Below the pieces are notes generated by a model. The model ran no database searches. It was not told the DNA's origin and saw nothing but the letters and a program-made list of their open reading frames with translations. This document shows positions 1,291 through 41,767 of a stretch of DNA of 64,000 nucleotides, piece by piece. Every line of letters begins with the position of its first letter. Position 1 is the first letter of the stretch. The stretch comes from a virus, in IMG/VR virus record IMGVR_UViG_3300040801_004314, positions 1-64,000 of that record; one strand, 5' to 3'. A program made the translations under genes and the position numbers.

Positions 1291-1800
1291 ATGGCTAAAG
1301 AAAAGAAAATGGTTTTTACCTCTAAGATTGTAGAGGAAATGACAAATAAGATAAATGATGGTATCTTGGTTAAGAGATTCGAAAACCCTTGGTTAAAAGG
1401 TGAAGTTGGTGTTAGAAGAAGTGGGGTGGCATTTAAAATGACCAATGATGAACAACAAGAATATGTAAAATGTGCTTTAGATATACATTATTTTATTGAG
1501 AAATATTGTAAAGTTAAAAGAGAAGATGGATCAACTGGACATATAAAACTAAGAGATTACCAATCAGATATATTAGATGATTTTGTAGAGAATAGATTCA
1601 ATATATTAATGGCTAGCCGTCAGGTTGGAAAATGTGTATCTTTTAACACCATTATATCGATTGAGAAAGATAATTATCAATATGATATTAGATTGGGTAA
1701 GCTATACTATAAAATGCTCTCTAAAGAAAGAAAATTGACCTTTTTAGAAAGGTTAAAGGTTAAATTATATGATTTCCTTTATTATCTTGAAGAGAATTAG
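1291..1800 (+). CDS. terL: Terminase large subunit N-terminal extein (114 aa) fused to split-intein N-fragment (55 aa)
   Basis: T4 gp17-like LRDYQ adenine-binding motif and Walker A SRQVGK, followed immediately by intein block A CVSFNTIISI beginning at nt 1633. Confidence 0.9.
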   Translation: MAKEKKMVFTSKIVEEMTNKINDGILVKRFENPWLKGEVGVRRSGVAFKMTNDEQQEYVKCALDIHYFIEKYCKVKREDGSTGHIKLRDYQSDILDDFVENRFNILMASRQVGKCVSFNTIISIEKDNYQYDIRLGKLYYKMLSKERKLTFLERLKVKLYDFLYYLEEN

Positions 1801-3527
1801 GTAATCTTTCTTTCAAATTTAATTTTCCCACAATCCCAGACTTTTAATAAATTTAATTCATTTTCTGAAATACCAGTTTTTGACTTTTTGAAATTAGATT
1901 TATGAATCCTTTTAGCATCTAGTATATACTTATAATCAGGTCTTGTATCATATAATTTATCAAATCCTAGCTTTGTGTATAACCTACCATTAGACCAATC
2001 TTTATCAGCATAACTTATAACCCTTTCCACGTTAACACTTTTGACAAAAAAAGATAGCATTTTAGAAGCACCACCAACAATATTAGTATTTGTTAAATTA
2101 CAAAATCTAGACAAGTTCCAATTACCATCGCTCATCCTTTTTCTACCCTCTAAGTTAGTGAATGTCATTACAGAAACAAGTAAGCCGTTGTAATATAGAC
2201 CAATTTTTTTACTAGAAGGTGATTTACCCTGTATATGATTTTCATCTAAAAATTTATTAACTATTTTAGAATTATTTATAAACTTAACTTCACATTTTCT
2301 AGCCCATATCTTATCGGATATACCTAACCAATTATTTATTTGTGACTTTATTATATTATTCCTATGAATCCAATCATCTTCCCAGATGTGTATTATTCTA
2401 ATTCCCTTGTCTTTAAAATAGTTAGTTTTGTTTATATGGTAATTTTTATCCTTGAATTTATCAGAGTGGAAATATAATCCATTGAATTCAAAGCCTATTT
2501 TCAATTCTGGTAGATAAACATCAATCTCTAAGTTATCTCTGTATGATTTTATTATTTTTCCTTTATAAACACTTTCTATATGCTCTAATAGTTCTTTTTC
2601 TTTTATAGAAACTAATTCACCTATTGGATTACATACGGTACATATTGGTATATTTGCATTTTTCCTCTTTAGATAGTTATCAGATTTTATTTTGAAAACA
2701 CAACCAGACTTACACTTGAACTTATGTGTCTTGTTTCCTTCATAAGAAATATGATTTATATCACTTCCTATTATAGTATCTACTAAGCTATTACTTGTTT
2801 TTTTATAATTATCAACACCCCATTTTTTGATATTATCTTCTTTTACTTTTTTCTTACATTCATCACTTTTTGAATAAGAAGATACACCCCATTTACTTAA
2901 GCTTGTTTTAGTTACCTTTTTTTTATAGTTATCTGTTTTTGAAAAATTATCAACACCGTATTTATTCAGAAGGGTTTCTTTAATTTTAATCTTAACATCA
3001 TCTAATTTGAATGGATTATCAACACCGTACTTGTGCATAACAGTTTCTTTGAATTTGGTTTTATATTCATCTGTTTTGGAATAGTGTTCAACACCCCATT
3101 TATCTATTGCTGTTTGTTTTATTTTTTCTTTATATTCATCTGTTTTAGAATAATGTTCAACACCCCATTTATCTTTTATAGATGATCTTAAGTTAGCTTT
3201 TATTTTATCACTTTTCATAGGATTATCAACGCCATAGTTACTTATATTTGTTTCTTTCCGTTTTTCTATGATACATCTTTTCTCAGAGCAACAGTCTTTA
3301 CTACCATCTTTTTTAATTTTTCTATACTTTCTCCACTCAGTAGAATATTCTTTATTGCAAAAATCACATTTAACATCAACTTTATATCCAGATCCATCAG
3401 GTAGTAACTCTATGGGCAAATGTAAAATTTCATCTAATTCTATGTCTATCTTATCACCATAAGACTTTAATAACTTTTTGTAGTTATAGGATGTGACTTT
3501 AATTTTAGAATAACTTGATAGTAACAT
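1797..3527 (-). CDS. Free-standing homing endonuclease (Vsr/PD-(D/E)XK, Hef-like) inserted antisense between the terminase halves
   Basis: CxxC motifs, tandem KYGVDN/KWGVEH repeats, EIDVYLPELKIGFEFNGLYFHS and IIHIWEDDW nuclease motifs, and a C-terminal SRFC...GGASK...SYAD domain. Confidence 0.75.
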   Translation of the reverse strand: MLLSSYSKIKVTSYNYKKLLKSYGDKIDIELDEILHLPIELLPDGSGYKVDVKCDFCNKEYSTEWRKYRKIKKDGSKDCCSEKRCIIEKRKETNISNYGVDNPMKSDKIKANLRSSIKDKWGVEHYSKTDEYKEKIKQTAIDKWGVEHYSKTDEYKTKFKETVMHKYGVDNPFKLDDVKIKIKETLLNKYGVDNFSKTDNYKKKVTKTSLSKWGVSSYSKSDECKKKVKEDNIKKWGVDNYKKTSNSLVDTIIGSDINHISYEGNKTHKFKCKSGCVFKIKSDNYLKRKNANIPICTVCNPIGELVSIKEKELLEHIESVYKGKIIKSYRDNLEIDVYLPELKIGFEFNGLYFHSDKFKDKNYHINKTNYFKDKGIRIIHIWEDDWIHRNNIIKSQINNWLGISDKIWARKCEVKFINNSKIVNKFLDENHIQGKSPSSKKIGLYYNGLLVSVMTFTNLEGRKRMSDGNWNLSRFCNLTNTNIVGGASKMLSFFVKSVNVERVISYADKDWSNGRLYTKLGFDKLYDTRPDYKYILDAKRIHKSNFKKSKTGISENELNLLKVWDCGKIKFERKIT

Positions 3528-8076: not shown

Positions 8077-8586
8077 ATGAAACGTATTCAAAATTTTGAA
8101 GCCCATAGAGGTAATAAAGTACAAGAAACTAAAGCACAAGAAACTAAAGTACAGGAAGCTGTAATTGAGGTTGAAGATACTTATAAAGTAAGAACAAGTA
8201 TTGATGTTCCTAAGAGCTTTGTAAATGCTTACATAAAAAAGGTTAAGGATGAGACTGGTGAAGATATCAGCCAATTGTTTGGTGATTTTGATATTGCAGA
8301 AGAACTAGTAAAACATGTAACTGATAAATATCTCGATAATGATATTATTTCTGCTAGAGCTTTAACTGGTGGTGAAGAAGAGGAAGAGGAAGAGGAAGAA
8401 GAAGTTCAACCTGAAATGAAAGAAGAAGAGGAAGCACAGGCACAAGAGGAAGAACAGGAAGAAGAACAGGAAGAAGAACAGGAAGAAAAAGCTGAAATGG
8501 AAGAAGAAGCACAAGAAGAAGGTGATGATGATTTCGAAGATGTTCAGGACTTAGACGAAGAAGAAGATGAAGATCTTCCTATCTAA
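8077..8586 (+). CDS. Highly acidic protein, possible prohead core/internal protein
   Basis: Poly-Glu C-terminal half, N-terminal MKRIQNFE motif, and a late-type promoter at about 8044. Confidence 0.55.
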   Translation: MKRIQNFEAHRGNKVQETKAQETKVQEAVIEVEDTYKVRTSIDVPKSFVNAYIKKVKDETGEDISQLFGDFDIAEELVKHVTDKYLDNDIISARALTGGEEEEEEEEEEVQPEMKEEEEAQAQEEEQEEEQEEEQEEKAEMEEEAQEEGDDDFEDVQDLDEEEDEDLPI

Positions 8587-9031: not shown

Positions 9032-9063
9032 CTTGTGAGAACTATTTATTTGTTTTATATTTG
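9032..9063 (+). promoter_or_regulatory. Bacteroidota sigma-A type promoter driving the tracrRNA/CRISPR locus
   Basis: (C)TTG at 9032-9035, a 20-nt spacer, then TATATTTG (TAnnTTTG -7 box) at 9056-9063, just upstream of the anti-repeat. Confidence 0.7.
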
Positions 9064-9067
9064 CAGT

Positions 9068-9199
9068 GTATTAATTGATTACCTTAACACAACCAACGAT
9101 AGCTTAGGCTATCGGGAGTGAATTTCAGTAGATTAAGTAGAGCAAGACATACATTGGCTCGATATACAGTAACTCCACTAACCTACACTAGTAGGATTT
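9068..9199 (+). ncRNA. tracrRNA copy 1 (stand-alone)
   Basis: Anti-repeat GTATTAATTGATTACCTTAACACAAC (9068-9093) is complementary to the first ~26 nt of the CRISPR repeat with a bulge. It is followed by hairpins CGATAGC-TTAG-GCTATCG, GGAGT...ACTCC and CCTAC-ACTA-GTAGG. Confidence 0.85.
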
Positions 9200-9300
9200 A
9201 AAAATTAAGGTAAAAGTTCTTTTTTTATTGATTAAAAAATGATTTCTAATAGTCATTAATGTGGTTAACTTACTAACAACCAATTATTTATAAGAGGTAG

Positions 9301-9645
9301 GTTGTGAAAGGTAATCATATTAGTACTATTCACAACGGTATTTAATAAACTAGCTATGGATGTTATGTTGTGAAAGGTAATCATATTAGTACTATTCACA
9401 ACTATGGAAATCCCGACCCGAACAAGCCAGAGGTTGTGAAAGGTAATCATATTAGTACTATTCACAACAAAATGCAAGATATACTAACTAGAGAGCTAGT
9501 TGTGAAAGGTAATCATATTAGTACTATTCACAACATAATAGAAATGTAAAGTCCACCTCATATAGTTGTGAAAGGTAATCATATTAGTACTATTCACAAC
9601 AAATTTAATAATTGATTGCAGTGATTGTCTGTTGTGAAAGGTAAT
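9301..9645 (+). CRISPR. Type II CRISPR array: five identical 36-bp repeats, a truncated sixth, and five 30-nt spacers
   Basis: Repeat GTTGTGAAAGGTAATCATATTAGTACTATTCACAAC at 9301, 9367, 9433, 9499 and 9565; partial GTTGTGAAAGGTAAT at 9631. Spacers at 9337-9366, 9403-9432, 9469-9498, 9535-9564 and 9601-9630. Orientation is inferred from the anti-repeat pairing. Confidence 0.97.
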
Positions 9646-9770
9646 ATAATAATACCTTAACACAACCAACGATAACTTATGTTATCGGGAGTGAATTTCA
9701 GTAGATTAAGTAGAGCAAGACATACATTAGCTCGATTTAGTAACTCCACTAACCTACTTTGGTAGGATCT
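9601..9770 (+). ncRNA. Putative natural single-guide RNA (spacer 5 + truncated repeat + loop + tracrRNA copy 2)
   Basis: GTTGTG-A-AAGGTA (9631-9643), a 9-nt loop ATATAATAA, TACCTT-AA-CACAAC (9653-9666), then a near-identical copy of the tracrRNA 3' hairpins ending CCTAC-TTTG-GTAGG (9753-9766). Confidence 0.8.
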
Positions 9771-9790
9771 AAAAATAAATACATATTATA

Positions 9791-9821
9791 CTTGTTATAT
9801 TAATAAATAGTGTTATATTTG
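9791..9821 (+). promoter_or_regulatory. Bacteroidota sigma-A type promoter upstream of cas9
   Basis: CTTG at 9791-9794, a 19-nt spacer, then TATATTTG at 9814-9821. Confidence 0.65.
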
Positions 9822-9854
9822 TCAAAAATAAATAATAACTAAAAATAAAATATT

Positions 9855-12800
9855 TTGTCAAGTAACAACTCACTTCTGGATAATTTTTTAAAAAATAAAA
9901 ATATTGATAACATCATGGGCATTGATGTTAATAAAAATAACTACGTCTCTTATTTAGTTATTGATGGTGAGCATAATCAATACTTCAAAATATTTAATGA
10001 AAAGAAAAAAACTACTGTCAGTAACACACTGAAAAATAAAAAGAAAAGAAAAGAAAACTTTTTCGACACCTCTAGCAAAATATTAAAATCCAGTCACACA
10101 AAACTTCATAAACACCGAAAAGAATTAAAGGGAGATTATAAATTCAACCCAGTGTATTTAGCTCATTGCCTAGTTAATAAAAATGAGCTTCCTAAAATGA
10201 ACTTAACTGTTGATGGGGTCTCTTACTCAGATGAAGATGTTGCATTCTATATTATATCTTTGTGGATGTTGAACAGCAGGGGCGCACAATCTCAAAAGTC
10301 AAAAATAAAATTAAGTAAAGAAGATCAAAAAGTAACAAAGAAACTTTCTAAAAAGGGTGTAAAAGCAATAGGTAAAAGAAAGTTAGAAGATATTATAAAA
10401 TCAATACCAAATGATTTAGAAGATCACAAGGTTAGTTATTATCCTACTATCAGGTCTAATAAGATAAATATGATGTTTAGCCCTAATGATTTAAGTTTTT
10501 TTAATCAAAATGATAACAAAGAGTTTTATATTGATATCATAAGTAAATTAGGTGGTAAATATTCTAGGAATGCTAGAAAATTAGCTAACATTATATTTTA
10601 CAATAAAAACCAGAATGAGAGAAAAAATGAAAAGAGAGGTGACTGTTCTTTTTTGAATCATAAAAAAGAATCACATAAAAGGGGTGATAAAAATAATCCT
10701 TATCAAGAATTAAGAATTACTCACTTGAAATTAAACACCTCTAACGAAAAAGATATTAAAGAACTCAATGATGAGTATAAAGATAAGTTTATAAAAAAGC
10801 TTACAGATAAGTCAAATAATGGGTTTATCAATAGTGTTATCATAGATATCTTAAAGTATGATCCGTTTTTTGATAACGATGAGCTATTTTTTAAAAAGGG
10901 TAAAAATAGCATTTTGAACATAGATAATGTAGCAGATATATTTTCTTCAATTTACAATTCTTACGAGACAGGCAAGCCATTAAAGTCATTTAAAGAGTTT
11001 AATTTGACAGCATCCAAGAAAGATTCAATATTAGAATATTTTGAAGAAAGTGGTAGTGTGGTGAGTGATGTTTCTGATAAATTTGCCAAGATATACTCTA
11101 ACTTTTTATTTAAGGGCAGAATCAATAGAACAGGCAATATGCTTAACTTATTAGTCTTGAATAAGGTCTATTCTACTGATGAGGGATATGATAAAAATAG
11201 AGCATGTATATCTAATAAGAAAATCAATGATGTTAAATCTTTTATGGAGAAAGATCTAGGTCTTCTAAAGATTAGCGAAATAGATAATATAATAAATGAT
11301 AAGAGCATTAGGTTTAGGTCTAATGGTTTGGAAGCTAAATTAAAGTTCGAAATTCAGAATTATATAAACAGTGTTTTGAAAAAAAAATGGACTGATCCTA
11401 ACGTACAACAAAAAATGTTTTTAATGGTAGATAATATAATGAATGTTATATTTTCGGATAATCCAAAAAACAGAACTCAACTCATACAAGGAATTGAAAA
11501 AATAAGAAATATAGATTATGTTATAGAATCTACTAGAGCTAAGTCTAACAAGGAAGAGAATGCATTCGAACATATTTTCAATAGAGTGATTAAAAATGTG
11601 TCTCTAAATAAATATCCTTCTAATAATTATAGTAGGTCTAGAATCTTATATGAAAGTGGTGGCATTGATGTTTATGACGGTAACCCTTTATCACTTGAAG
11701 ATACTGATAAAGACCATGTTGTTCCACGCAGTTGGGTAACTTCATATGGTAATAATATATCCAATTTAGTTCCGTGTAAACATTCATTAAACAAGGAAAA
11801 GGATAATAACCTTCCTTTATCTAGTGACTTAAATTTGAACAAGTCTGGATTTAAAAAGCAATTGAATAATATCTATGGAACATCCAGAATTGATGATATT
11901 TGTGAGGATATTTCTATTTATATAGAAGAAGAACACGGAGGTAAACTTTATAATAATGACGTTTGTTATATTGATAGCCATTTGGACTTTTACCATAAAG
12001 AAACTGATAAAAAAGGCAATATAAAGACTAATGGCATATTTAAAAAAATAGACAAATATGACCTTAGAAGACATTTAGTATCATATTTTAATAAAAAAAT
12101 GAACATTTTGTTAATGGAATCGAGTAAAGATGAGTTAGAGATGGAGTTTGGATCTTCTCTACTGTCTAATATTTCTCACTCGGTCTCTGCACTAACTGAT
12201 ATCCTAACTGATGTTTTCGGTGTTGATAGAAGTAGAATAAGCTACACACCAAGACAATTTTCTTATATAGGGAAAATTAGAGGTAAGAGAATATTAGATT
12301 TACCAAAAGATAGAGATTGGAATCATCATCACATGGTAGACTGCTTTTTGTTATTATTGTTAAAACATAGAAAGAATGTATTCCACTCAAAGTCTACTAG
12401 GGAAACTAAATATAAACCTAACTTAAATGATGTTAGTGATATGTATAATTATTTTAAAGAGATGGATATTTATATAAATGACGATAAGGATATTGAGGAT
12501 ATAATAAATGTTCTTAAAATGGTCGAAAATAATACTAAGCCTACATTTAAAAAGGTTAGATCTTTTAAAAAGAGAGTTTCCGTAGATGATAATGGTAAAA
12601 AAACAACTACTATGTCACCACGTGGTAAAATGTTCGGGGATACAATATACGGTTCTTATAAAAAGGATGGCGTTGTGATGTCTAAAGGGTATGAGGTCAA
12701 GGGAATTGTTTTGGATAAGGATAAAGATGGGAAGGATATAAAACAGGACAATGTAATAGTTAAGAATCCAAACACTGGTGAAGACTTCATTTTAGATAAG

Positions 12801-13355
12801 AAGGATAAAAAAAATAGTAATTTACGTAAAATGCCTGAAGGTGCTTATATTGAAAACACTACTAATAAAGAGGAAAATTTATACTTGGGAAAGAAAGTCT
12901 CAAAAAATAAATATCATTCAAAAAAGAAGGGAAGTAATGCATCTCATTCAGTATATTTTCATTTAAATGATAAAGGGAAAGCTGTATCAAAAGTGGTAAA
13001 TAAGTTTAGTATGATAGCAAAAAAAGATGAGAATGGGAATGTTGGCGTTAAGTGCAGTGAAGAAATAAAACGTGAAAATAATATCCCAAGTGATGCTATT
13101 AGAATATCAAAAAAGGATGTATTTAATTTTAGTGGGTATATACATAATTTTAAGGGAGTTGATTATAAGATGAACTCTCTTTATAAAATAAATGCTATAA
13201 ACAAAAATATAATAGTAACTGAAATAAGTACTAATTTAAGCTATAAAACCAAAGAAGAGGAAGCTGAGTTTCTAGTTAGTAATAAAATTGCATTTAGTAT
13301 TTCTTATGAGAAATTCTATAAACATTTTGGTAAAACCATTCATTTAGTAAAATAA
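9855..13355 (+). CDS. cas9: Divergent Cas9 (type II-C-like), 1166 aa; start uncertain (TTG at 9855 or ATG at 9915)
   Basis: RuvC-I IMGIDVNKN; REC motifs RG.QSQK and IIFY...RGDCSF...KRGDKNNPYQELRI; DPNVQQ; RuvC-II YVIESTR; HNH DVYDG...DKDHVVPRS...NLVPC...LNKEKDNNLP; RuvC-III KDRDWNHHHMVDCFL. Adjacent to the array and tracrRNA. Confidence 0.9.
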   Translation: MSSNNSLLDNFLKNKNIDNIMGIDVNKNNYVSYLVIDGEHNQYFKIFNEKKKTTVSNTLKNKKKRKENFFDTSSKILKSSHTKLHKHRKELKGDYKFNPVYLAHCLVNKNELPKMNLTVDGVSYSDEDVAFYIISLWMLNSRGAQSQKSKIKLSKEDQKVTKKLSKKGVKAIGKRKLEDIIKSIPNDLEDHKVSYYPTIRSNKINMMFSPNDLSFFNQNDNKEFYIDIISKLGGKYSRNARKLANIIFYNKNQNERKNEKRGDCSFLNHKKESHKRGDKNNPYQELRITHLKLNTSNEKDIKELNDEYKDKFIKKLTDKSNNGFINSVIIDILKYDPFFDNDELFFKKGKNSILNIDNVADIFSSIYNSYETGKPLKSFKEFNLTASKKDSILEYFEESGSVVSDVSDKFAKIYSNFLFKGRINRTGNMLNLLVLNKVYSTDEGYDKNRACISNKKINDVKSFMEKDLGLLKISEIDNIINDKSIRFRSNGLEAKLKFEIQNYINSVLKKKWTDPNVQQKMFLMVDNIMNVIFSDNPKNRTQLIQGIEKIRNIDYVIESTRAKSNKEENAFEHIFNRVIKNVSLNKYPSNNYSRSRILYESGGIDVYDGNPLSLEDTDKDHVVPRSWVTSYGNNISNLVPCKHSLNKEKDNNLPLSSDLNLNKSGFKKQLNNIYGTSRIDDICEDISIYIEEEHGGKLYNNDVCYIDSHLDFYHKETDKKGNIKTNGIFKKIDKYDLRRHLVSYFNKKMNILLMESSKDELEMEFGSSLLSNISHSVSALTDILTDVFGVDRSRISYTPRQFSYIGKIRGKRILDLPKDRDWNHHHMVDCFLLLLLKHRKNVFHSKSTRETKYKPNLNDVSDMYNYFKEMDIYINDDKDIEDIINVLKMVENNTKPTFKKVRSFKKRVSVDDNGKKTTTMSPRGKMFGDTIYGSYKKDGVVMSKGYEVKGIVLDKDKDGKDIKQDNVIVKNPNTGEDFILDKKDKKNSNLRKMPEGAYIENTTNKEENLYLGKKVSKNKYHSKKKGSNASHSVYFHLNDKGKAVSKVVNKFSMIAKKDENGNVGVKCSEEIKRENNIPSDAIRISKKDVFNFSGYIHNFKGVDYKMNSLYKINAINKNIIVTEISTNLSYKTKEEEAEFLVSNKIAFSISYEKFYKHFGKTIHLVK

Positions 13356-21331: not shown

Positions 21332-23083
21332 ATGATAAAATATAACTTAATACCAATAGAAACGAAGGGATGTAGAAAAATAAAACATTACGAATCCTTG
21401 GGTTATGACATTAATAAAGATGTCATGATGGTTAAAGTAGAACATGTAACAAAGGGTTCACGTAAAAAGGTTGCTGTTATATGTGATTACTGTAACAAGG
21501 AAAGTATTACAACATTAAAGCAATATTTTCTAAATATATCAAATGGTGATAAATATGCATGTTGCCAAAAGTGCGGATCTATGAAGTCAAAAGAAACTTT
21601 ATTGGAGAGGTATGGTGTAACACATCATATGAAATTAGATGAAGTTAAAGAAAATGTCAAAAATACAAATCTAAGAAAATACGGAGTTGAATATTTACAA
21701 CAATCTGATGAATTTAAAAATAAATCAAAAGAAACTCTTCTTAATAAATATGGTGTTGACCATATTTCAAAATCAGAAATATATAAAGATAAGTTTAAAA
21801 AGACTTGTCTTATAAATCATGGTGTTGAGTATCCTATGATGTCAGATAAAATAAGAAATAAATCTAAAACCACTTCACTTAAAAAATATAAAGTAGATAA
21901 TCCAGCAAAATCTAATATTGTTAAAGGAAAAGTAAAAGAAACGAATCTAAAAAAATATGGAAATGTTAATTATCTAAAAACAGAAGATTATAAACACAAG
22001 AATAAAATAACATTGAATAAAAAGTGGAATAGTGACAACATAATGAAATCTGATACTTTTAGATATGGTAAATTTAGCATATCTAAAGATAAAGGTTATA
22101 TAAAATATTTAGGTGATAGACACTCACTAATGGAATGTGATAATGGTCATCATTTTAAAATACACATAGACAACTTTATAAAAAGAAAGATTAGCGAAAT
22201 ACCTGTTTGTACTATCTGTAATCCAATAGGGGATACAAAGTCATTTAAAGAAATAGAAATCTTCGATTATATAAACTCCGTATATAGTGGTGAAATAATA
22301 CAATCATACAGAGATGGATATGAAATAGATATTTATTTACCAGAGTTAAATTTAGGTTTTGAATTTAATGGATTGTATTTTCACTCTGAGAAATTTAAAG
22401 ATAAAAATTATCATATAAATAAGACTGACTATTTTAAAGACAGGGGGGTTAGAATAATACATATATGGGAAGATGATTGGATTCATAGAAATAATATAAT
22501 AAAATCCCAGATAAATAATTGGTTAGGGATTTCTAATAAGTTATGGGCTAGAAAATGTGAAGTTAAAATTATTAAAAATAATAAACATGTGTCTAATTTT
22601 TTGAATAATAATCACATACAAGGAAATGGTAGATCCTCTGTTAAAATTGGATTGTTTTATAATAAAGAAATAGTAAGTATAATGACTTTTAATCACTTAG
22701 AGGGTAGAAATAAAATGTCTTCTAATCATTGGAACATAAATAGGTTCTGTAATAAAAAGGATGTATCTGTTATTGGTGGTGCAAGTAAAATATTAAAATA
22801 CTTTATAAAAGAATACTCACCAAATAGAATAATAAGTTATGCTGATAATGATTGGTCTAATGGTAATATGTACAATAAGTTAGGATTTAGTATATCTAAA
22901 ACACCAAAGCCAGACTATAAGTATATTGTAGGTGGTAAAAGAATACATAAATCAAATTTTAAAAAATCAAAATTAAAAACGAATTTAACTGAGAACAAAC
23001 ATATGAAAAATATGAATGTTCTCAGAATTTGGGACTGTGGTAAAATAAAATTTGAGCTTATACTAAATAAAATCATCAGTTAA
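21332..23083 (+). CDS. Homing endonuclease paralog (Vsr/PD-(D/E)XK, Hef-like)
   Basis: Same architecture as 1797..3527; EIDIYLPELNLGFEFNGLYFHS. Confidence 0.75.
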   Translation: MIKYNLIPIETKGCRKIKHYESLGYDINKDVMMVKVEHVTKGSRKKVAVICDYCNKESITTLKQYFLNISNGDKYACCQKCGSMKSKETLLERYGVTHHMKLDEVKENVKNTNLRKYGVEYLQQSDEFKNKSKETLLNKYGVDHISKSEIYKDKFKKTCLINHGVEYPMMSDKIRNKSKTTSLKKYKVDNPAKSNIVKGKVKETNLKKYGNVNYLKTEDYKHKNKITLNKKWNSDNIMKSDTFRYGKFSISKDKGYIKYLGDRHSLMECDNGHHFKIHIDNFIKRKISEIPVCTICNPIGDTKSFKEIEIFDYINSVYSGEIIQSYRDGYEIDIYLPELNLGFEFNGLYFHSEKFKDKNYHINKTDYFKDRGVRIIHIWEDDWIHRNNIIKSQINNWLGISNKLWARKCEVKIIKNNKHVSNFLNNNHIQGNGRSSVKIGLFYNKEIVSIMTFNHLEGRNKMSSNHWNINRFCNKKDVSVIGGASKILKYFIKEYSPNRIISYADNDWSNGNMYNKLGFSISKTPKPDYKYIVGGKRIHKSNFKKSKLKTNLTENKHMKNMNVLRIWDCGKIKFELILNKIIS

Positions 23084-40138: not shown

Positions 40139-41767
40139 ATGAATAAACAAAGATTTAAAATAATAAATGATATACTTCAAGAAAAGCCTACTAGATTAAG
40201 AGAGTCGTATTTTATTAAAAACTATAATGATGTCTATAATAAAATAGTAAAATATACTGAAGGCATAGATTTACCTTTTAAACAAAGAATGTGGCACTGG
40301 ATAAATGAACTACCGACTATTTATGTCTGTAAGTGTGGTAAACCTACTAGTTTCTATAAGAATTGGAAACATGGATATAGGAGTGCATGTTCACCAAAGT
40401 GCGCACAAACAAATGATAAAACCAAGGAAAAAAGAAGAAAAACTACATTAGAAAAATATGGCGTAGATAATATTGCTAAATTGGAAGAAATTAAAAAAAA
40501 GCAAGAGGAAACTAACATACAAAAGTATGGTCATAAATCTACATTTCAAAACGAAGAAGTTCAGAAAAAATGGAGAAAAACTATCGAAGATAGATATAGT
40601 GTAGATCATTATTTTAAAACTAATGAGTTTAAGAAAAAGGCTAAGAAAACATCTAAAAAAAAATACGGGAAAGAACATTACGTACAATCAAAATCATACA
40701 AAGAAAAACTTAAAGAAATTGGATTCAATGATATATTGAAACAAATAAATATCAATAAACATCTTAGGAAATATGATAATATAGGTTTAGAATTTATAGA
40801 TTTAAGCGATAGAATATTAACATTAAAAGGTGAATGCGGACATCAATTTGAAATACATTATGATTCTTTAAAACGAAGAATAGAGAATTCTTATGATTAT
40901 TGCACTATATGTAATCCAGTTAATTCAGTACAATCACAAGATGAGAAAGTACTAATAAAGTGGTTAATGGAAAAAAATATAGATCTCGTAGAGAAGGATC
41001 GAAGCTTAGGTATTGAGCTAGATATATTAATACCTTCCAAGAAAATAGCAATAGAGTTTAATGGATTATATTGGCATTCTGAATTATTTAAAAATAACAA
41101 TTACCATTTAGACAAAACTACAATATGTAGAAACAATGATATAAGATTAATACACATATGGGAAGATGATTGGAAATACAATAAAACAATTGTAAAATCT
41201 ATTATTTTGAATAGCCTTGGGCTGATTGAGAAAAAAGTATATTCTAGAAAATGTGAAATAACTACCTTAAGTAACAAAGAAAAAAACTTATTTTTAGAAA
41301 AAAATCACATACAAGGGAAGTGTGTATCAAGTGTTAATTTGGCACTTATGTATAATAATGAAGTAGTCTCTGTTATGACATTTGGGAAACGCAAAATGAG
41401 TAATAAAAACGAATTTGAGTTAATAAGGTTTTGTAATAAAGTAAACAATGTAGTAATCGGTGGGGCTTCAAGATTATTTAACTATTTCATTAACAATTAC
41501 CAAAGTGATCATATAATTTCTTTTGCTGATATATCTCATTTTGAAGGTGGTGTATATAAGAAATTGGGATTTAAATTTGTACACAGGACTATCCCAAATT
41601 ATTGGTGGGTAGTTAGTGGTATTAGGTTTCACCGCTTCACCTATAATAAAAAAAGGTTAGTGAAAGAAGGTGCTGATCCTAATAAAACCGAAGTTCAAAT
41701 AATGTATGATAAAGGATATTTTAGAATATTTGGTTGTGGTCAAGATAAGTACGTTTATCATAGGTAA
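40139..41767 (+). CDS. Homing endonuclease paralog (Vsr/PD-(D/E)XK, Hef-like)
   Basis: KYGVDN repeats, ELDILIPSKKIAIEFNGLYWHS and HIWEDDW. Confidence 0.75.
   Translation: MNKQRFKIINDILQEKPTRLRESYFIKNYNDVYNKIVKYTEGIDLPFKQRMWHWINELPTIYVCKCGKPTSFYKNWKHGYRSACSPKCAQTNDKTKEKRRKTTLEKYGVDNIAKLEEIKKKQEETNIQKYGHKSTFQNEEVQKKWRKTIEDRYSVDHYFKTNEFKKKAKKTSKKKYGKEHYVQSKSYKEKLKEIGFNDILKQININKHLRKYDNIGLEFIDLSDRILTLKGECGHQFEIHYDSLKRRIENSYDYCTICNPVNSVQSQDEKVLIKWLMEKNIDLVEKDRSLGIELDILIPSKKIAIEFNGLYWHSELFKNNNYHLDKTTICRNNDIRLIHIWEDDWKYNKTIVKSIILNSLGLIEKKVYSRKCEITTLSNKEKNLFLEKNHIQGKCVSSVNLALMYNNEVVSVMTFGKRKMSNKNEFELIRFCNKVNNVVIGGASRLFNYFINNYQSDHIISFADISHFEGGVYKKLGFKFVHRTIPNYWWVVSGIRFHRFTYNKKRLVKEGADPNKTEVQIMYDKGYFRIFGCGQDKYVYHR

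Follow-up and report, generated by a model that had tools for sequence, protein, structure and literature searches.

The stretch of viral DNA analysed here (64,000 nucleotides, hereafter the window) comes from an IMG/VR virus record consisting of a single contig of 100,664 bp, with 29% GC, which is classed as linear and for which CheckV estimates a completeness of ~22%. The genes on the record include those for a terminase, a portal, a protease, a major head protein, tail proteins and a ribonucleotide reductase, together with several HNH homing endonucleases. Since the relatives of its TerL (55-70% identity) include contigs of 240-508 kb, and in view of the estimated completeness and the phage gene set, the record is taken to be a fragment of a jumbo phage. 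Three of the large HNH homing endonucleases are paralogous (phrog_3339; 1797-3527 on the minus strand, 21332-23083 and 40139-41767 on the plus strand), one of them located between the pieces of the terminase gene and another lying directly after the major head protein gene.

This fragment carries a compact type II locus, every part of which is encoded on the plus strand, in the order tracrRNA copy 1, leader, CRISPR array, a repeat-like sixth unit (unit 6), a second scaffold copy and a cas9 open reading frame. The first tracrRNA copy (9066-9208), delimited by its duplex with the repeat and by a consensus structure, is composed of a long anti-repeat (9066-9093), a CAA linker, a nexus hairpin (9097-9114), a large hairpin (9115-9176) and a terminal hairpin (9182-9195), and it is separated from the first repeat by a leader of 92 nt (9209-9300). 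The array proper (9301-9600), found by repeat search, is formed by five identical 36-nt repeats, GTTGTGAAAGGTAATCATATTAGTACTATTCACAAC, starting at 9301, 9367, 9433, 9499 and 9565, each of them followed by a spacer of exactly 30 nt: spacers 1-4 within the array and, following its register, spacer 5 at 9601-9630. Thus, the identical repeats and uniform spacers expected of a type II module are present, as is a tracrRNA that lies on the crRNA strand and runs from anti-repeat to hairpins (copy 1). Cas1 (PF01867) is encoded nowhere in the 100-kb record, which covers ~22% of the genome, and no family could be assigned to the small ORFs located 3' of cas9. A further ORF without family, of 169 aa (8077-8586), is found just upstream of the CRISPR locus and ends in a long, Glu-rich, low-complexity tail built of imperfect repeats rich in GAA and GAG.

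The effector gene (9855-13355, plus strand) encodes a protein of 1166 aa whose only Pfam match is HNH_4; no Cas9 family of Pfam, NCBIfam or PADLOC recognizes it and no PDB chain was retrieved by sequence profile. A profile search against 1.84 billion cluster representatives returned six proteins, and the family amounts to ~8 members (P0002, 84% identical, and P0008 among them), all encoded on short Logan/ENA/IMG contigs. In the six-sequence alignment, residues D24, E558, H621, N646, H825/H826 and D829 are invariant and correspond, in the order found in Cas9, to the RuvC-I Asp, the RuvC-II Glu, the HNH His and Asn, and the RuvC-III His/Asp. Although AlphaFold produced a weak model (pLDDT 54), its top Foldseek hits are all Cas9 proteins (E down to 1e-8), and so are the top VIA-align hits (Z 10-12.7, with ~300 aligned residues across 16-933). 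From this predicted fold and these motifs, by which alone it can be recognized, we conclude that the protein is an extremely divergent Cas9 with intact catalytic residues. Its bridge-helix region is rich in Lys. Used as a query, either as a single sequence or as an alignment, the Cas9 found no match in viral, metagenome or genome contigs, and a tblastn search against the INPHARED phages was empty. The repeat pattern was likewise absent from viral and metagenome contigs, and the scaffold core from viral contigs, while 53 jumbo-phage loci related by TerL contained no Cas9, scaffold or repeat.

Between the array and cas9 lies the fused part of the locus. Unit 6 (9631-9666) keeps the 66-nt register of the array and has the 36 nt of an ordinary repeat, and it reads GTTGTGAAAGGTAAT, the first 15 bases of the repeat, followed by a loop segment, ATAATAA, and by the cut-back anti-repeat TACCTTAACACAAC. 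It continues without interruption into scaffold copy 2 (9667-9779, plus strand), which comprises the linker, the nexus, the large hairpin, the terminal hairpin and a conserved AUYUAAAAAU tail. The block 9653-9779 is homologous to 9080-9208 (91% identity over 127 nt, or 94% over 87 nt and 88% over 41 nt when taken as separate segments), and at both of its edges the similarity ends, the flanks being unrelated. A duplicate of 127 nt whose substitutions are patterned by the RNA structure (see below) goes well past what chance would produce. If unit 6 is aligned instead with the repeat over its whole length, allowing one gap, ~81% of the positions are identical (by eye), with the switch to tracrRNA homology at TAC. 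A sequence-only reading of the window had proposed that the sixth repeat diverges and runs through a 9-nt loop into a second tracrRNA copy, and that a separate tracrRNA is encoded upstream; both the sequence and the homology bear out the former, and the latter is what is seen at ~9066-9208, with its long anti-repeat.

The same reading had described a fold with the topology of an engineered Cas9 single-guide RNA (sgRNA), and RNAfold, run on 9601-9775, reproduces its stems, bulge, loop and 3' hairpins exactly. A lower stem of 6 bp (GUUGUG:CACAAC), an A/AA bulge, an upper stem of 6 bp (AAGGUA:UACCUU) and a loop of 9 nt are followed downstream by the three scaffold hairpins, with a minimum free energy of -38.7 kcal/mol (z = -2.7 against shuffled sequences). 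The predicted folds therefore place on one strand a guide, a lower stem, a bulge, a short upper stem with its loop, a nexus and hairpins, and the unit 6 hairpin matches the module that is kept in engineered sgRNAs. It also matches part of the trans pairing of the same system. In the duplex between the repeat and the copy 1 anti-repeat (-25.8 kcal/mol), 6 bp form the lower stem and 10+8 bp the upper one, and the bulge that parts them has 1 nt in the repeat and 2 nt in the tracrRNA. Unit 6 reproduces this lower stem and this bulge in cis, together with the initial 6 bp of the upper stem (-10.2 kcal/mol).

How stable this hairpin is depends on what else the RNA contains. It survives cofolding with tracrRNA copy 1. 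In the full-length precursor at equilibrium, repeat 5 takes up unit 6 and the second anti-repeat as partners, which leaves the hairpin a probability of just 2-10%. When folding of the whole precursor is kept local (pair span <=60 nt), the probability rises to 0.89-0.96, and it is 0.96 for RNAs whose 5' end lies at or inside spacer 5, and 0.60-0.74 if remnants of repeat 5 are still attached. The single-guide fold thus needs either co-transcriptional folding or 5' processing; according to these models, processing of the duplex between repeat 5 and tracrRNA copy 1 would supply the necessary 5' trimming.

Taking all this into account, we favour, albeit with modest confidence, a functional cis-folded guide for spacer 5 that works beside a trans-acting tracrRNA serving spacers 1-4. 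The locus would then be a phage-borne type II effector module (without adaptation genes in the sequenced fragment) whose guides are encoded in two formats, on one strand and just upstream of cas9. Spacers 1-4 would give rise to ordinary crRNAs, the repeats downstream of them pairing in trans with the ~28-nt anti-repeat of tracrRNA copy 1. In the case of spacer 5, the pairing would take place in cis, the first 15 nt of the repeat bending back across the loop of 9 nt to meet the proximal anti-repeat of copy 2, which is 14 nt long. Once its 5' side is freed, either by processing of the repeat 5:tracrRNA 1 duplex followed by trimming, or by a transcription start inside repeat 5, a single-guide RNA of ~150-165 nt would result, with the order spacer 5, lower stem, bulge, upper stem, loop, nexus and hairpins. 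We infer that the unit would be transcribed as one RNA, processed, and loaded by Cas9 with no need of trans pairing or RNase III, and that the complex would be able to cleave. On this view spacer 5 would be hard-wired and might stay constant as spacers 1-4 change. As for its origin, the most economical scenario would be a single crossover between the terminal repeat (broken between ..AGTAC and TATTCACAAC) and the tracrRNA anti-repeat (broken between ..GATTAC and CTTAACACAAC), which would create the hairpin in one step, the stems being kept and the loop drifting thereafter.

The transcription signals recognizable in the region are weak. A promoter-like site for tracrRNA copy 1 (TTGTGA-17-TATATT, 9033-9061, plus strand; 9 of 12 matches, by consensus only) ends 6-8 nt before the predicted start at ~9067-9069, which is where the complementarity to the repeat begins. 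A possible array promoter was noticed by eye at 9266-9294 on the plus strand (TTAACT-17-TATAAG, the last base of its -10 hexamer being G). Promoter-like sites are not enriched in number, 15 having been found versus 10.2 +/- 3.3 in shuffled sequences. Each of the repeats also holds TTGTGA-16-TACTAT (9302-9329 in the first of them), again a match to the consensus only. Repeat-borne promoters are known in the type II-C arrays of Neisseria and Campylobacter. By analogy, the repeats of this locus may carry their own promoters; the fused guide would then be transcribed straight from repeat 5. At the other end, there is no recognizable intrinsic terminator 3' of either scaffold copy. Two other options were considered and discarded: a start from an internal promoter in the loop (TTGTCT-17-AATAAT) would fall inside the lower stem and yield a tracrRNA with no usable anti-repeat, so it was rejected as the main reading, and transcription of the array from the minus strand was rejected because that orientation has no anti-repeat. 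The two best σ70-like matches of the region (TTGACA-18-TATTAT and TTGACA-17-TAATAT, 9797-9861) lie on the minus strand. They face left, away from the cas9 start, and run antisense to the array and to scaffold copy 2.

Could the fused unit be a mere by-product of recombination? On this account, a degenerate terminal repeat happens to adjoin a duplicated tracrRNA gene and the cis hairpin is incidental; copy 2 would be either a redundant trans-acting tracrRNA with a short anti-repeat or idle, and spacer 5 would be served, if ever, by pairing of tracrRNA copy 1 with the 15 retained repeat bases. We see in it a real possibility, though not a probable one. Terminal repeats are commonly mutated, and type II loci with two anti-repeats, or with a degenerate distal repeat near the tracrRNA, are on record (PMC3737331). 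The repeat is itself quasi-palindromic and forms a hairpin of its own (-10.3 kcal/mol), so that the crossover yields a hairpin without any selection; the identity between unit 6 and the repeat over the full length points in the same direction, and neither a terminator nor a strong promoter sets off a separate sgRNA gene. What speaks against it is, in the first place, the substitution pattern in the copy 2 scaffold and in both stems of unit 6. Copies 1 and 2 differ by one compensatory change of a G-C to an A-U pair (GAUAGC..GCUAUC versus GAUAAC..GUUAUC), and the eight further events between the scaffolds are all located at unpaired positions of the consensus structure (p ~0.007 for all eight doing so by chance), a test that is supportive and not decisive because that structure was predicted from the same two sequences. 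Compared with the repeat and with copy 1, unit 6 shows no change in its stems (0 of 27) and three in the loop (3 of 10; Fisher p 0.015). In the second place, copy 2 would be a poor partner in trans, since the sequence upstream of its TACCTT has no complementarity to repeat positions 14-26. Its anti-repeat is cut back to 14 nt, just those that find a partner in the retained half of the repeat and that are already occupied in cis, and it reaches ~-10 kcal/mol versus -25.8 kcal/mol for copy 1. Finally, the homology between the copies stops exactly at the limits of the functional RNA, with unrelated flanks, which fits a long-term maintenance of both copies. Altogether, the compensatory pair, the intact stems and the shortened anti-repeat argue for a fused copy that is maintained by selection and not decaying.

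A second alternative accepts the cis-folded guide and assigns it another task, namely a regulatory one such as that of tracr-L or of scaRNA, in which Cas9 binds without cutting at a partially matching site, either in its own promoter or in a host or phage gene, and tunes expression with no destruction of DNA. This is the sole role demonstrated experimentally for a natural Cas9 single guide (10.1101/2020.05.21.102756), and the unit is placed directly upstream of cas9. Moreover, spacer 5 is the only spacer that has words in common with the locus: tracrRNA copy 1, in the region of its 5' end and anti-repeat (9061-9080), contains TAATAATTGATT (11 of 12 positions) and TTGCAGTG of this spacer in swapped order, and spacers 1-4 have no 7-mer in common with that region (p ~0.006-0.012). 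Those words, however, do not run collinearly, and the seed end is not among them; they may be the relic of a rearranged anti-repeat or, alternatively, spacer 5 may have been acquired from the tracrRNA locus of a related phage. Spacer 5 is, besides, a full 30-nt spacer in the array register and no short pseudo-spacer. It has no second copy in the 100-kb record at <=8 mismatches and no seed match of >=10 nt, its PAM-proximal 10-14 nt (the 3' end) being unique in the record, so that the available 22% of the genome shows no self-repression target like that of tracr-L, though one may lie in the remainder or in the host; a search of viral and genome contigs for an exact copy of its 3' 22 nt was also empty. 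A regulatory role is, in our opinion, quite improbable. As for a mis-joining of the array to a tracrRNA copy by the metagenomic assembler, the fragmentary origin of the record and the difficulty of assembling arrays and duplicated RNA genes would favour it, but we regard it as highly improbable, given that the loop at the junction and the ~10 differences private to copy 2, the compensatory pair included, are unique sequence (which speaks against the joining of repeated k-mers), that unit 6 sits in the exact 66-nt register, and that repeat and anti-repeat share no long k-mer in the same orientation.

Several known systems resemble this one in part. The natural analogues, i.e., the long-form tracrRNA of S. 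pyogenes and the IscB omegaRNAs, had been thought in the sequence-only reading to be arranged differently. This holds for the former, but the closest precedent, CRISPR-associated IscB, has the same layout and had been overlooked. In these systems (DelIscB), the guiding ncRNA upstream of the ORF contains an array as well as repeat and anti-repeat regions (Altae-Tran et al. 2021, according to PMC12660989), and the latter paper considers that they might stand midway between IscB and Cas9 (PMC12660989). As in DelIscB, array, repeat/anti-repeat hairpin and scaffold are contiguous here (9301-9779), directly upstream of the nuclease ORF (9855) and on the same strand, and the last spacer appears to be encoded as a ready-made single guide. 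The arrangement is thus less unprecedented than had been held, because DelIscB already has this array-scaffold-ORF layout. Nevertheless, there are clear differences. The effector is a full-size protein of 1166 aa with a predicted Cas9 fold, aligned to Cas9 structures across residues 16-933, whereas IscB is compact and has no REC lobe. An Rfam scan matched the scaffold to no family, none of the weak hits being a tracrRNA or HEARO, and gave no HEARO/omegaRNA match at E values up to 10. Lastly, this locus has an additional, stand-alone tracrRNA with a long anti-repeat.

In the tracr-L of S. pyogenes, a repeat-like segment folds in cis on the anti-repeat, giving a natural single guide (Workman et al., 10.1101/2020.05.21.102756). 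It is a 5'-extended tracrRNA with its own promoter, its short guide has an 11-bp match in the cas9 promoter, and it represses transcription (10.1101/2020.05.21.102756). The present unit shares with it the condition of a genome-encoded Cas9 RNA whose repeat-like part is predicted to fold in cis on an anti-repeat. In contrast, the repeat half is here the array's own terminal repeat, the guide is a regular 30-nt spacer, and for spacer 5 no promoter match was found in the 100-kb record. As for a promoter of its own, the unit shows weak consensus matches only. With regard to engineered sgRNAs, which keep lower stem and bulge plus the first part of the upper stem (design of Jinek et al. 2012; Faure et al., PMC6546382), unit 6 corresponds to precisely the stem and bulge module that they retain, but its loop is a natural AT loop of 9 nt in place of the GAAA tetraloop, and the candidate guide sits at the natural end of an array. 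Duplicated anti-repeats or a degenerate distal repeat by the tracrRNA have been reported in the type II loci of L. gasseri and L. coryniformis (Chylinski et al. 2013, PMC3737331), where a degenerate last repeat was proposed as the source of the tracrRNA anti-repeat (Chylinski et al. 2013, PMC3737331). The two anti-repeats within one locus are common to those cases and to this one; that paper, however, describes no complete second scaffold joined to a repeat/anti-repeat hairpin that folds in cis. A phage type II-C Cas9 has also been reported whose RuvC is dead and which comes with a tracrRNA though without an array; the suggestion is that it makes use of crRNAs hijacked from the host (Altae-Tran et al. 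2023, PMC10910872). Here too a phage carries a Cas9 and a tracrRNA, yet the catalytic residues are intact and the array and guides are its own. In the open-access literature, no paper was found that reports, for a full-size Cas9 with a stand-alone tracrRNA, an array ending in a repeat fused to a second and complete tracrRNA scaffold.

Should the fused RNA be produced and prove active, a full-size Cas9 would for the first time be seen with a natural single guide of the interference type, and the design of the sgRNA (lower stem, bulge, short upper stem and loop) would have arisen in nature as well. It would also provide a concrete case for the relation of tracrRNA and array to the single omegaRNA of IscB, and would imply that a phage can keep one guide independent of the host RNase III and of its own trans-acting tracrRNA. 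In addition, the PAM and guide requirements of the 1166-aa Cas9 would be new, because its family of ~8 proteins is missed by the standard HMMs. One might go further and suppose that the array-terminal cis guide, far from being a recent accident, is a maintained feature of a deep phage Cas9 lineage to which the standard Cas9 models are blind, and that this lineage runs single-RNA guiding (IscB-like, in the order guide, scaffold, ORF) together with dual-RNA guiding (array plus trans-acting tracrRNA), either as a living intermediate of the splitting of an omegaRNA into crRNA and tracrRNA or as an RNase III-independent guide for any host; this extension strikes us as distinctly unlikely.

What the remaining guides are directed against can be approached through the spacer sequences. 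None of the spacers 1-5 has a match elsewhere in the 100-kb record, and blastn of the array against a phage collection gave matches at chance level only. The 3' 21 nt of spacer 2 (9403-9432) match exactly a 52% GC contig of IMG/VR (L001:6818-6838), the 5' 9 nt being different; as a target this was rejected, since a match of that length is probably due to chance at this database size. For spacer 1 (9337-9366), 23 of the 30 positions match an ORF of 948 aa, to which no function is assigned, in four related jumbo-phage contigs (L014:5802-5831, and also L013, L015 and L036), and the encoded peptide carries conservative replacements (I[KT]SI[SA]S[IL]L..). Such similarity suggests that the real target of spacer 1 may be a homologue of that ORF in a competing related phage and, with it, a case of phage-versus-phage targeting.
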